Both the position numbers and the translations under genes were made by a program. DNA of 64,000 bases. Origin: an uncultured Gammaproteobacteria bacterium. GTDB lineage: Bacteria; Patescibacteriota; Patescibacteriia; UBA9934; GWF2-40-263. How positions within the stretch are numbered: the stretch's first letter is position 1; the number at the start of each line of letters is the position of its first letter. The DNA lies in the NCBI GenBank assembly GCA_964402425.1, contig CAYOCD010000003.1:4608-68607 (forward strand). Direction: 5' to 3'. Under the pieces are notes generated by a model, which saw only the letters and a list, made by a program, of their open reading frames with translations, ran no database searches and was not told the origin of the DNA. Shown here in pieces: positions 18,389-19,513 of the stretch.

Positions 18389-18429
18389 CAAAAAGAAAAC
18401 CCGATCTTGTTAGGATCGAGTTAGAGTCG

Positions 18430-18812
18430 TTCGGCCTGGCGAGCAGAGAGGAGGTTCCACTCGCTCAGGCGACCACGATCAACACGACGCCGTACAGCAA
18501 CTCAAAGTTGCGAGGCGAAGTGGATCTGCGGTTAGTTGAGCATTGGTATGCTCGTGAAAATTCGGAAGCGTACGGCACTTTGCACACACGCCCCCGAACC
18601 TGGTTTGAGTGTTTCCACTCTCGTTTGTCCCCGTATCGCCGACGTATTGACGTCTACGAACCGGGGGGGGAGGCTGTGTCCGTGACCCACACGGAAGAAC
18701 AGCCACCTACAAGACAGAGTGTCGATCAACGACGCAATACTGCTTGTGGGTTACAATCACGCTCCGGCATTGACCTTCGCGTGGGGTATCGGCTGTCGCT
18801 CGCGTCAGGCTT
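18430..18812. ncRNA. Candidate structured RNA or degraded foreign DNA: GC-rich (55-65%) stretch with no credible ORF; strand and identity unresolved
   Basis: Compositional outlier against the ~40% GC background. The ends can pair (GCCUGGCG at 18434-18441 with CGUCAGGC at ~18803-18810, including a G-U pair if read on the plus strand). Internal hairpins such as gacgt-attg-acgtc. I could not match RNase P, tmRNA or SRP consensus blocks by eye. Confidence 0.2.
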
Positions 18813-18843
18813 AAACCTCGAACGCGTGCGATGCCGAAAAAAA

Positions 18844-18990
18844 CTACTTGGCAGCCTTCTTCTTGACGACAGTCTTGATGTGACCACGGAATTCTTTGGT
18901 CTGCTTGAGCATTCCGCAGCTCCGCTCATGCCTGTCGACGGCCTTTCCACCCTTCTGGGTGGAGTAGCCGCACCTGCAAGTGTAAGCCAT
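18844..18990 (-). CDS. Candidate 48-aa basic Cys/His-containing protein (MAYTCRCGYSTQKGGKAVDRHERSCGMLKQTKEFRGHIKTVVKKKAAK)
   Basis: My own translation; below the ORF-track size cutoff. GGAGA lies 7 nt upstream of the ATG. A TTGACA-17-TATTCT promoter sits ~90 nt upstream on the same strand. Codon third positions are GC-rich, like the surrounding island. Confidence 0.25.
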   Translation of the reverse strand: MAYTCRCGYSTQKGGKAVDRHERSCGMLKQTKEFRGHIKTVVKKKAAK

Positions 18991-19074
18991 GCACATTCTC
19001 CATTGGTGTTTTCACACCATATCTCGCCCTTCAGAACGATCGCACTCGCGAATCGATCTTCAGACGAACGAAAG

Positions 19075-19103
19075 AGAATATCAGAAAAAATGATTTTTGT
19101 CAA
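19075..19103 (-). promoter_or_regulatory. sigma70-like promoter: TTGACA, 17-nt spacer, TATTCT
   Basis: The reverse complement reads TTGACAaaaatcattttttctgaTATTCT, pointing towards the 48-aa ORF and GC-rich region. Confidence 0.45.
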
Positions 19104-19121
19104 TGGCTCGTCATTCGACAA

Positions 19122-19157
19122 CAAAAAAAGTTGTCAGATTCTGACAACTTTTTTTTG
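19122..19157. terminator. Bidirectional terminator (8-bp stem gttgtcag/ctgacaac flanked by an A-run and a T-run)
   Basis: It follows the stop of the 19160..19513 minus-strand gene. Confidence 0.6.
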
Positions 19158-19159
19158 AT

Positions 19160-19513
19160 CTACCCATTTCCCTTCTTAAACGCCACTTTGAATGACGGAT
19201 ACCATTTTTGATCATATTCATCCACAATCTCCACCGTTTCATCTTTCATGTACATGTTCAGTGCTAAATCTGAAAGAACTTCTGTGTCTGTCTGAATTTC
19301 TGCCTTCAGTTCTTCAATCTCTTTAAAATCTGGATTCCCCGCCTGAACCGTTTGTTCAATCGCTTTTTTCTCTTCGCGAAGCGCCATCATTTCTTCTTTG
19401 ATTTCTTTATGACGACTGGAATGTGAAAGTTCGTCAGAGATCATTTTCCCAATCTCGCGCTTTCGCTTTTTATTTTTTTCTAAACGCTTATAAACTTCCT
19501 CAAGGTTTGGCAT
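19160..19513 (-). CDS. Hypothetical coiled-coil protein
   Basis: 117 aa, lysine/glutamate-rich heptad-like N-terminal half. No motif recognised. Confidence 0.45.
   Translation of the reverse strand: MPNLEEVYKRLEKNKKRKREIGKMISDELSHSSRHKEIKEEMMALREEKKAIEQTVQAGNPDFKEIEELKAEIQTDTEVLSDLALNMYMKDETVEIVDEYDQKWYPSFKVAFKKGNG

Follow-up and report, generated by a model that had tools for sequence, protein, structure and literature searches.

A probable dual-function transcript of Candidatus Uhrbacteria combining a putative zinc-finger micro-protein gene with a structured 3′ RNA domain

What is encoded by the GC-rich, ORF-poor gap that separates dusB from a 117-aa gene in an uncultured bacterium of the Candidatus Uhrbacteria from groundwater? 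The gap, hereafter the island, occupies positions 18361-19155 of the window (the whole stretch of 64,000 nucleotides that was analysed) and has a GC content of 55% relative to 42% for the whole window. Along the minus strand it presents a promoter, a two-hairpin leader, a GGAGA Shine-Dalgarno (SD) sequence, a 48-aa Cys/His ORF, ~445 nt of non-coding RNA comprising 11 hairpin modules, and an intrinsic terminator. The island is probably a single small transcription unit of the minus strand, in which the mRNA for a micro-protein and a structured 3′ RNA domain are joined in one dual-function transcript.

Borders and expression signals of the island

The island is bordered on both sides by strand-neutral hairpins. 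On the left, adjacent to dusB (17304-18359, plus strand), is a second, bidirectional terminator hairpin (18361..18384) that is common to dusB; island-free relatives possess a single, different terminator at this position. On the right, a perfect 16-bp hairpin with A/T-run flanks (19123..19155) serves as the terminator of the upstream 117-aa gene (19160-19513, minus strand); it is 100% complementary and also occurs in the homologous loci L003 and L190. The island unit itself has one promoter and two terminators. Its GC content is 0.558 at 18398-18843 and 0.548 at 18398-19068, as compared to 0.424 for the window, with maxima of 0.62 in 100-nt windows and 0.68 in 50-nt windows. An earlier, sequence-only reading had put the region at 60-65% GC, a figure that is valid for short windows and not for the island as a whole, because longer stretches give the lower values.

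That reading had also placed a promoter on the minus strand, and a sigma-70-type sequence, TTGACA-17-TATTCT with a TG before the -10 box, was indeed found at 19103..19075 as the sole promoter-like site in 18000-19600. One such site is no excess over the shuffled region (mean 1.6); the promoter call carries weight because its -35 box is kept in all five homologous loci that were compared, namely the RNA-bearing loci of the window, L003, L004, and L190, and the tail-less locus L203. The promoter sequence TTGACAAAA is kept in 5/5 of these loci, and the -35 hexamer lies at the same distance from the leader in 4/4 RNA-bearing loci. The 5′ leader (18991..19068, minus strand) consists of an outer stem, UCGUCU/AGGCGA, around one hairpin, followed by a second hairpin, GGUGU-GAAA-ACACC (19018-19005), and then by the SD, GGAGA (19001-18997), 6 nt before the ATG at 18990. 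Over the five loci, the leader has 21 consensus pairs, four with compensatory changes, and the same architecture is seen in L203. SD sequences had been described as rare elsewhere on this contig. Of 60 long ORFs, 9 (15%) have an SD core ahead of their first ATG, as against 8% for all ATGs, a rough tally because the starts are uncurated. At the other end of the unit, module M11 (18389..18422, minus strand) is the intrinsic terminator, with a 9-bp stem followed by UUUUCUUUUU; it is conserved, with one compensatory pair.

The start site, any processing, and the translation of the transcript are predictions. The promoter would start an RNA of ~680 nt, whose conserved two-hairpin leader would present the SD, and the first third of this RNA would be translated into a basic C2HC/C2H2 zinc-finger protein of 47-57 residues. 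The rest, 320 to more than 560 nt depending on the variant, would fold into about ten GC-rich hairpins in a row, each largely autonomous, with the intrinsic terminator last.

The putative zinc-finger micro-protein

The micro-protein gene lies at 18844..18990 on the minus strand (stop codon included) and encodes MAYTCRCGYSTQKGGKAVDRHERSCGMLKQTKEFRGHIKTVVKKKAAK (MAYTCRCGYS...KKKAAK), with a ligand spacing of C-x-C-x13-H-x3-C and then a Lys-rich tail. Five peptide variants, all basic and 47-57 residues in length, occur at the same locus in related Uhrbacteria. C5, C7, and H21 are invariant among them, the fourth ligand is either Cys or His, and an SD is present in all. Synonymous sites differ by 53-66% between the ORF variants and are near saturation (dS about 0.9), and pN/pS is 0.23-0.26. 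This substitution pattern indicates that the 48-aa ORF is a real, conserved gene under purifying selection. The tiny Cys/His peptide first proposed, with a promoter and SD of its own, has by this evidence a genuine gene (five variants, pN/pS ~0.25, ligands kept), and computationally it supplies the small ORF expected of a dual-function RNA.

Zinc binding by the 48-aa protein is suggested by its motif and by a medium-confidence model. AlphaFold2, using an alignment of 4 sequences, predicted a beta-beta-alpha arrangement with strands at residues 2-4 and 10-12 and a long helix at 16-46 (mean pLDDT 67). A Foldseek search of the PDB with this model returned nothing significant, the best match being a chain of the human minor spliceosome (E = 5). 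In Pfam, no peptide variant matched a zinc-finger family at E <= 1 or any family above threshold; a sub-threshold match was to DUF1390 (E of 5e-4 to 0.07). A word-index protein search and a full HMMER scan of 1.84 billion representatives found just four peptide clusters.

Classical beta-beta-alpha C2H2 fingers include the dsRNA-binding fingers of the U1/matrin type and bacterial Ros/MucR. Much like these, the island protein is basic, with a predicted beta-hairpin and helix, and its L004 variant has the spacing C-x4-C-x12-H-x5-H and a hydrophobic residue three positions before the first His. The classical spacing, C-x2-5-C-x12-H-x3-5-H, is found in this variant only; the window variant has C-x1-C-x13-H-x3-C and, with no Pfam zinc-finger match for any variant, the peptides fall outside the classical C2H2 class at the level of sequence. 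Unlike the classical proteins, moreover, each is a lone finger of 47-57 aa with no other domain.

The RNA tail and its predicted structure

Many hairpins had been noted beyond the ORF, and folding bears this out. The tail (451 nt) has a minimum free energy (MFE) of -201 kcal/mol, with z-scores of -8.3 (minus strand) and -6.1 (plus strand). For the four RNA variants, z is -7.1, -3.5, -6.1, and -9.7 on the transcript strand and -4.6, -1.6, -4.5, and -4.4 on the opposite strand, i.e., the ORF strand folds better in 4/4. The ORFs themselves are not unusually structured (z of 0 to -2.6). When the whole window was scanned for folding in 300-nt segments, the three that fall in the island ranked 2nd, 5th, and 6th of 213. 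The other members of the top eight were three windows with tRNA genes (20101-20400, 22501-22800, and 33301-33600), one with the rplI-pyrG interval, and 12601-12900.

Each module of the tail is a hairpin in every variant that carries it. In 5′ to 3′ order on the minus strand, M1 (18789-18837), M2 (18758-18783), M3 (18705-18751), and M4 (18672-18704) are hairpins with a conserved base and a variable tip. These are followed by M5 (18629-18666); M6 (18607-18620), a GNRA-loop hairpin between the conserved GAACGAGAG and CUCAAACC; M7 (18557-18601); M8 (18538-18553); M9 (18472-18532); and M10 (18430-18472), whose stem is invariant at its base (GGUCGCCUG / CCAGGCCGAACG) and covaries in its middle part, and whose C-rich apical loop includes CCUCC. 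The M10 base, the M6 hairpin with its flanks, and CCUCUCCCGG have changed little or not at all among variants that have diverged elsewhere. Apical loops, on the other hand, all differ (UUAA, UGGGU, CAAU, GAAA, ACCA, ACCUCCUC, and others), and since no loop motif recurs, a protein sponge of the CsrB/RsmZ type, in which a short motif such as GGA is displayed in many loops, was discarded. A model in which the M10 CCUCC loop or the M4/M5 junction sequesters the SD in cis was likewise rejected, as the duplex energies are no better than those of shuffled loops. The full-length MFE folds do contain long-range 5′-3′ helices, which use other partners in each variant and were rejected as a conserved feature.

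Compensatory changes were found in these stems. In a sequence-only MAFFT alignment of the M4-M6 block, 91% of cells pair and 10 of 29 pairs have compensatory changes; shuffles gave 4.2 +/- 1.5 such pairs, with 0/500 reaching the observed number, and slid controls gave 0-4. A comparison by hand of the M2, M3, M5, M9, and M10 stems in per-variant folds yielded about 19 compensatory pairs, a figure that is biased towards the structure and does not serve as a statistic. All of these covariation figures are statistically weak, as they come from just four distinct RNA variants, including a truncated one, and are inflated by relatedness. Composition follows the predicted structure, with a GC content of 0.65-0.68 at paired and 0.36-0.44 at unpaired tail positions. 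In sum, computation places the tail on the ORF strand and shows it to be non-coding, much more stable than its composition predicts, and to have kept its hairpins through compensatory and length changes.

Strand assignment bears directly on the earlier suggestion of an independent ncRNA of ~380 nt, transcribed from the plus strand and with an 8-bp helix joining its ends. That strand, too, has a better fold than its shuffles (z of -6.1), and UUCGGC and GCCGAA at the two ends can pair as had been proposed. This helix is self-complementary and thus strand-neutral, however, and does not favour the plus strand. The promoter and the T-run terminator, M11, are both on the minus strand, no plus-strand promoter occurs in 18000-19600, and the plus-strand z is the weaker in 4/4 variants. 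Moreover, the predicted minus-strand folds contain 6-22 G-U pairs per variant, all of which would become A-C mismatches on the plus strand, and G-U to G-C changes between variants are located in the minus-strand stems. An independent plus-strand RNA is thus scarcely credible; rather than a free-standing gene, the RNA appears to be the 3′ portion (~445 nt) of the transcript that encodes the peptide.

It is also conceivable that the tail descends from one or more protein genes, acquired horizontally and since decayed, or is some other foreign junk, and in either case came in with the zinc-finger gene. The composition does look foreign, as the earlier reading had sensed (ORF GC3 is 0.75-0.95 versus 0.29-0.47 for host genes), the island is patchy among close relatives, and similarity between variants is mosaic. 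Decay, the other half of that suggestion, fares poorly: purifying selection acts on the ORF, and those RNA modules that can be aligned show a conservation similar to that of the flanking genes (72-85% identity versus 78-87%). The long ORFs of the region (216 aa on the plus strand; 132 and 75 aa on the minus strand) have no Pfam match and are broken in relatives by indels of 1-2 nt, upholding the view that they are artefacts. Substitutions are even over the three codon phases (p 0.38-0.88) and most indels are of 1-2 nt rather than multiples of three; a protein gene or pseudogene in the tail was rejected on these grounds. High GC, moreover, has persisted over a dS of ~0.9 at predicted paired positions only, where decay in a 42% GC genome would have erased it, and the z-scores and compensatory changes indicate RNA structure. 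A decayed remnant is accordingly very unlikely.

Alternatively, the hairpins could act as DNA, either as a REP/MITE-like cluster of palindromes or as attC-like recombination sites of a small mobile cassette. In favour of this, sister genomes either have or lack the island at precisely one intergenic position, its parts have been recombined between lineages, and a short ORF precedes the hairpins, an arrangement seen in integron cassettes. Against this, the asymmetry between strands and the G-U pairs speak for RNA, each module occurs only once within the 64-kb window, there are no terminal inverted or direct repeats, and no recombinase is found among the neighbouring genes. A 10-nt ATTGACAAAA pair that might have passed for a terminal inverted repeat joins the dusB stop region to the -35 box, is not seen in the other loci, and was judged a coincidence. 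Searches of phages and plasmids by tblastn and blastn found nothing significant, and three pattern scans and one protein-profile scan of IMG/VR gave chance matches only, which BLAST excluded. An IS, MITE, REP/BIME, or integron cassette was rejected on the basis of repeats, of copies within the window, and of recombinases among the neighbouring genes, and DNA-level hairpins in general have only an outside chance of being the explanation. We infer that the tail is a functional domain at the RNA level, rather than a protein remnant or an array of DNA palindromes.

The RNA also matched no Rfam family, as the earlier suggestion of an unrecognised ncRNA had implied. Against Rfam 15 at the gathering threshold, the window matched three tRNAs and the island matched nothing (RNase P, tmRNA, 6S, SRP, group I/II introns, OLE, GOLLD, ROOL, HEARO, and raiA included); at E <= 10, only chance matches of the terminator type were obtained at the island's edges. 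L003, L004, L190, and L203 were likewise devoid of Rfam matches, and ARAGORN predicted no tmRNA.

Variation among relatives and possible roles of the tail

Only four distinct variants of the RNA are known, all from one clade. Island presence or absence varies among sister genomes, most of which have an empty site and appear to do without it. Ten of the 13 contigs recorded for the P0002 loci were compared and all were 100% identical to L003, as was the one contig recovered by a metagenome scan with the promoter-leader pattern. We read the island as an accessory unit of a small Candidatus Uhrbacteria clade.

The variants differ considerably in content. L004 is without M1-M3, L003 is without M7, and L190 has an insertion of ~190 nt and a duplicated M6. 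With local hairpins and modules that come and go, the tail looks less like a compact functional fold than like a loose array or a stabiliser. L203 possesses the leader, the ORF (in an AT-richer gene), and a terminator of its own with no RNA tail; the tail is therefore seen as a later, modular, lineage-specific 3′ addition. The window and L004 share 85% of M8-M11, whereas their peptides are only 38% identical. Protein type thus does not track RNA type, which argues against a specific co-evolution of the two.

How might such a transcript act? The tail could yield a long-lived 3′ RNA that displays its fixed motifs, namely the M6 GNRA loop, the C-rich M10 loop with CCUCC, and the GAACGAGAG / CUCAAACC / CCUCUCCCGG linkers, to a partner that would bind them. 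Our best single guess, which is tentative, is that the partner is a protein, with the co-encoded basic zinc finger as the obvious candidate, in what would be a self-encoded ribonucleoprotein (RNP). That the tail is a trans-acting, base-pairing sRNA of the 3′UTR type is possible but rather doubtful. A purely cis-acting stabiliser seems unlikely, and we rate a tail without function at the same low level.

A rival explanation is a 3′ UTR with no role of its own, which would shield the zinc-finger mRNA from 3′-5′ decay or insulate the convergent dusB and zinc-finger transcripts, and for which any stable hairpin would suffice. Such a 3′ UTR accords with hairpins that are local, GC-rich in their stems, variable in number and length, and subject to gain, loss, and duplication; the high GC3 of the ORF could reflect a common theme of stability, and in L203 the protein gene works without a tail. 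Yet a plain terminator is enough for L203, ~450 nt is more than a generic stabiliser needs, and particular sequences (the M10 base, M6 and its flanks, and CCUCUCCCGG) have hardly changed, if at all. On balance, we consider this explanation unlikely as well.

A dual-function transcript is not without precedent. Small proteins and RNA action are combined in RNAIII/hld of Staphylococcus aureus, SR1/SR1P of Bacillus, SgrS/SgrT, VcdRP, and AzuCR (PMC12612679, PMC12310071). The island resembles these in having one promoter, a small ORF (<60 aa) close to the 5′ end, and after it a long series of hairpins that runs to the terminator. It differs in that its protein is a basic zinc finger rather than an amphipathic peptide, its host is a CPR bacterium, pairing with its own SD is no better than that of shuffled loops, its tail is far more variable in modules, and there is no similarity in sequence or by covariance model. 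The 3′ hairpins of RNAIII have C-rich apical loops, a feature shared with M10.

Enterobacterial 3′UTR-derived sRNAs, such as CpxQ, SroC, and DapZ, are 50-150 nt in length and depend on Hfq and RNase E. As with these, the tail uses the terminator of its mRNA and its conserved part (M10-M11) adjoins that terminator. It is much longer, however, at 320 to more than 560 nt, and no internal promoter was found in 18000-19600. Finally, large ncRNAs including OLE, GOLLD, ROOL, HEARO, and raiA appear as long, GC-rich intergenic regions in AT-rich genomes (PMC6429828, PMC8632094, PMC11109978). The island shares with them a long, GC-rich, ORF-poor gap of >300 nt, strong folding, and some covariation; unlike them, it lacks an Rfam 15 match and any long-range or pseudoknotted core, shares its predicted transcript with an ORF, and has a very narrow distribution of four variants in one clade.

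A more far-reaching possibility, and a decidedly speculative one, is that the zinc finger and the hairpin array together constitute a self-contained RNP, a new accessory module of CPR bacteria that is prone to recombination and is encoded on a single ~0.7-kb transcript. If so, the RNA would grow by adding or duplicating hairpin modules and might serve, for example, in conflict with phages or hosts, while the foreign codon usage, mosaic exchange, and presence or absence at one site would be those of a circulating cassette and not of vertical descent.

CPR/Patescibacteria make up a large share of bacterial diversity, and their non-coding RNAs and micro-proteins are barely known; a literature search for non-coding RNA in Uhrbacteria or the CPR found no paper. 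Structured RNAs of >300 nt outside the known classes are rare and have repeatedly opened new biology. The unit predicted here comes in four RNA variants with a very narrow distribution, and this one locus offers both a candidate new RNA and a candidate new family of single-zinc-finger micro-proteins. It also provides a natural series, consisting of an empty site, the protein gene alone, and the protein gene with tails of differing module sets, that makes the question of what the tail adds directly testable.

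A predicted single transcription unit beside dusB

The island (18361-19155) lies between dusB (17304-18359, plus strand) and a conserved coiled-coil gene of 117 aa (19160-19513, minus strand), which is followed by DUF1294, tRNA-Gln, ftsX and ftsE. The dusB protein is 86-88% identical to that of three Candidatus Uhrbacteria MAGs (loci L002, L003 and L004) and 79% identical to that of a further relative, L005, which places the window in a CPR/Patescibacteria genome. In a window of 42.4% GC, the island reaches 0.558 over 18398-18843, with maxima of 0.62 and 0.68 in 100-nt and 50-nt windows, respectively. 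Long, ORF-poor, GC-rich gaps in AT-rich genomes are the established signature by which the GC-IGR approach locates structured RNAs, and the island is flagged by the same signature (PMC6429828, PMC8632094, PMC11109978).

Every element that the sequence-only reading had listed for this GC-rich, ORF-poor stretch was found. The promoter, TTGACA-17-TATTCT with an upstream TG (19103..19075, minus strand), is the sole promoter-like site in 18000-19600. It is followed on the same strand by a leader, an SD (GGAGA, 19001-18997) placed 6 nt 5' of an ATG at 18990, a 48-aa ORF ending at 18844, and two terminators at 18422-18398 and 18384-18361. The leader folds as an outer stem around one hairpin, with a GGUGN-loop-NCACC hairpin immediately 5' of the SD; this architecture is kept in all five homologous loci compared, L203 among them, with compensatory changes in 4 of 21 pairs. 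An SD core precedes the first ATG in only 15% of 60 long ORFs, against a background of 8%, and the earlier remark that such sequences are rare elsewhere is therefore roughly right. Computation shows one unit running from promoter to terminator on the minus strand, which would be transcribed and translated as drawn.

The 3' domain as a candidate structured RNA

The 451 nt 3' of the stop codon, hereafter the tail, fold at -201 kcal/mol, with a z of -8.3 for the minus and -6.1 for the plus strand. When 213 windows of 300 nt were scanned, three island windows ranked 2nd, 5th and 6th; the others among the top eight comprised three with tRNA genes (20101-20400, 22501-22800 and 33301-33600), one between rplI and pyrG, and 12601-12900. 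Relative to dinucleotide shuffles, the tails of the four known variants gave z values of -7.1, -3.5, -6.1 and -9.7 on the transcript strand and, in the same order, -4.6, -1.6, -4.5 and -4.4 on the opposite strand, weaker in every case, and the predicted transcript-strand folds hold 6-22 G-U pairs per variant. The earlier reading had favoured the plus strand, should its end-to-end helix be real; these values speak against that call. The ORFs of the variants do not fold unusually. GC content follows predicted pairing, at 0.65-0.68 in paired against 0.36-0.44 in unpaired positions, the latter near the genome average. That the long frames encode no plausible protein also proved correct: the ORFs of 216 aa (plus strand) and of 132 and 75 aa (minus strand) have no Pfam match, substitutions between variants lack 3-nt periodicity (p 0.38-0.88), and most indels are of 1-2 nt. 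Computation shows the tail, a 3' domain selected for stable hairpins, to be a non-coding structured RNA on the ORF strand. No Rfam 15 family matches the island RNA, in keeping with the unrecognised RNA that had been proposed, and a literature search on non-coding RNA in Uhrbacteria or CPR found no paper.

The window tail was split into 11 modules (M1-M11, the last an intrinsic terminator), each folding as a hairpin in all variants that carry it, with varying stems, tips and lengths. When M4-M6 of the four variants were aligned by MAFFT from sequence only, pairing was seen in 91.4% of cells and compensatory changes in 10 of 29 pairs; shuffled controls gave 4.2 +/- 1.5 such pairs (none of 500 reaching 10) and slid controls 0-4. 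M1 and M10-M11 are mostly conserved in sequence, with a few compensatory or G-U changes. A comparison by hand of stems anchored on conserved flanks, which leans towards structure, yields ~19 compensatory pairs overall; with just four related sequences, the pairing evidence as a whole falls short of proof.

Conserved elements include the M4/M5 junction CCUCUCCCGG, M6 (a GNRA-loop hairpin between GAACGAGAG and CUCAAACC), M8, the M10 base GGUCGCCUG / CCAGGCCGAACG, and the terminator M11. In each of the three complete variants, the apical loop of M10 is C-rich and contains CCUCC; a test did not support the idea that this loop sequesters the SD of its own transcript. Identity is 72-85% in alignable modules, a level similar to that of the flanking genes (78-87%), and 53-66% of synonymous sites differ. 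Constraint therefore acts on the modules, which does not support the earlier suggestion that the island may be partly decayed. We infer a function for the tail, and consider it unlikely that the tail has none.

The module set itself varies. The L004 tail lacks M1-M3 and has a minimal M4, that of L003 lacks M7, and that of L190 carries a ~190-nt insertion of extra hairpins with a second M6 copy. In L190, M6 and its flanks (GAAYGAGAG-hairpin-CUCA) occur at 617-637 and 807-826, ~190 nt apart, with five additional hairpins between them. The tail grows through module duplication and insertion, of which this pair is direct evidence. No conserved long-range helix was found in the tail, and the 5'-3' pairings in full-length MFE folds change partners from variant to variant; the architecture is a loose hairpin array. 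Such an array could be a mere stabiliser or insulator acting in cis, a role that we regard as improbable.

Other elements of the window

A cloverleaf-like element of ~125 nt (20232-20365, minus strand) lies directly 5' of tRNA-Gln (20158-20231), with a 9-bp closing stem GGAAUGACC/GGUCAUUCC around three hairpins, two short with UUC loops and one of ~30 bp. It has an RNAfold z of -8.5 and no Rfam family, and 20101-20400 (z -11.8) is the strongest outlier of the whole-window scan. A long hairpin also occurs at L203 1668-1765, ~100 nt from a tRNA gene. Folding is likewise strong at 40801-41100 (z -7.3 plus strand, -5.8 minus strand), which spans the terminator after an rplI-like gene and a GC-richer leader of ~150 nt before the likely true pyrG start, with no Rfam match at the gathering threshold.

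A second GC-rich island (37990-39023; up to 0.63 in 300-nt windows) separates rpmA (37556-37837) from pyrG. It holds two minus-strand ORFs without a Pfam match, one of 174 aa (38001-38525), which is membrane-like, ends in a Pro/Ala-rich tail and has a strong SD, GAGGAGG, and a membrane ORF of 156 aa (38553-39023). Both have a GC3 of ~0.6, and they look horizontally acquired. Finally, 15963-17276 (minus strand) holds a pair of neighbouring half-size MFS-like ORFs of 209 and 224 aa, which resemble each other, are both called MFS_1 in an identical JGI contig, and recur as a pair in L003-type loci. They may be a transporter that was split or duplicated, or else a two-gene arrangement.

A small gene at a variable site

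The five peptide variants align, with C5, C7 and H21 invariant; the fourth ligand is His in L004 and Cys in the other four. Spacing is C-x-C-x13-H-x3-C in the window and C-x4-C-x12-H-x5-H, the classical C2H2 spacing, in L004. Comparison of the window, L003 and L203 gave a pN/pS of 0.23-0.26 at a pS of 0.53-0.84, and AlphaFold2, using a four-sequence alignment, predicted a beta-hairpin formed by residues 2-4 and 10-12 and a long helix spanning 16-46, at a mean pLDDT of 67. Computation shows a real, conserved gene with zinc-finger ligands, whose product presumably binds zinc. No Pfam family was matched, the sole signal being a sub-threshold DUF1390 match; nothing significant was found in PHROGs, PDB sequences or Foldseek, and among 1.84 billion representatives a full HMMER scan returned just two relatives. 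The micro-protein represents a new family. ORF GC3 is 0.75 in the window, 0.89-0.95 in L003, L190 and L004, and 0.62 in tail-less L203, against 0.29-0.47 in host genes, rpmA included; the codon usage is alien to the host. The tiny, putatively metal-binding protein proposed earlier and a foreign-looking composition are both present.

The same arrangement of promoter, leader, small ORF, GC-rich tail and terminator occupies the same site in three further lineages: L003, a Rifle aquifer population; L004, from Lac Pavin; and L190, a Logan contig of 947 nt ending inside the tail. Ten more loci of the L003 peptide (10 of 13 contigs on record) and a single metagenome match are 100% identical to L003. 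Relatives were surveyed more widely via homologs of the 117-aa gene. In L203-L205, the promoter and leader precede a 47-aa homolog (MAYNCPCGYSTQKGGKTVNSHERKCGKLKKAKEFRGHMQIQTKKKSK), after which a terminator follows directly, with no tail. Beyond the 117-aa gene, L002 and the loci of P0007, P0006, P0012, P0013, P0010 and P0008 leave a gap of just 25-85 nt before the next gene, and an ATP-grasp gene sits at the site in L005. The locus thus has three states (empty, with the protein gene alone, and with both protein gene and RNA tail), and computation shows the 3' domain to be an addition to a gene able to stand alone. In the P0014 loci (L211-L213), the gap of ~250 nt holds no homolog of peptide or tail. 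In L211, this gap (2078-2330) contains neither island nor dusB; it has an AT-rich stretch with a tRNA-like segment (GGGATTTGAACCCCAACAAC...), beyond which lie three small ORFs without annotation. The site is here in a further variable state.

Similarity between variants is mosaic. Relative to the window, L190 is 91% identical in promoter and leader and only 69% in the ORF nucleotides; L004 is 85% identical in M8-M11 and only 66% in the ORF nucleotides (38% in the peptide); and L003 shares the peptide type (79% nucleotide identity), with a leader only 70% identical. The mosaicism, the three-state locus and the foreign composition jointly suggest an accessory cassette, with recombination of its parts between strains. 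The island lacks terminal repeats and a nearby recombinase, occurs once in the 64-kb window, and has no homologs in the phage, plasmid or IMG/VR collections. It is bracketed by two 10-nt sequences that match perfectly in inverted orientation (ATTGACAAAA / TTTTGTCAAT, 18347-18356 and 19095-19104), the final dusB codons and the -35 box. Since the former differ in L002-L005, the match is a coincidence rather than a terminal repeat.

Dual-function RNAs such as RNAIII, which join a small ORF to a long multi-hairpin 3' domain with C-rich loops, are the closest analogy, a likeness of layout and not of membership (PMC12612679, PMC12310071). The tail appears to be a new RNA motif within this known general layout. 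That it acts in trans, as a 3'UTR-type RNA, is rather doubtful. Of the modes of action weighed, a protein-binding scaffold, with the co-encoded basic zinc finger as the obvious candidate partner, is tentatively favoured, though less likely than not; however, the protein occurs without the tail, and RNA type is not tracked by protein type. Although confined to one small clade and only four variants, the island provides CPR with a rare candidate large structured RNA, together with a natural three-state comparison.
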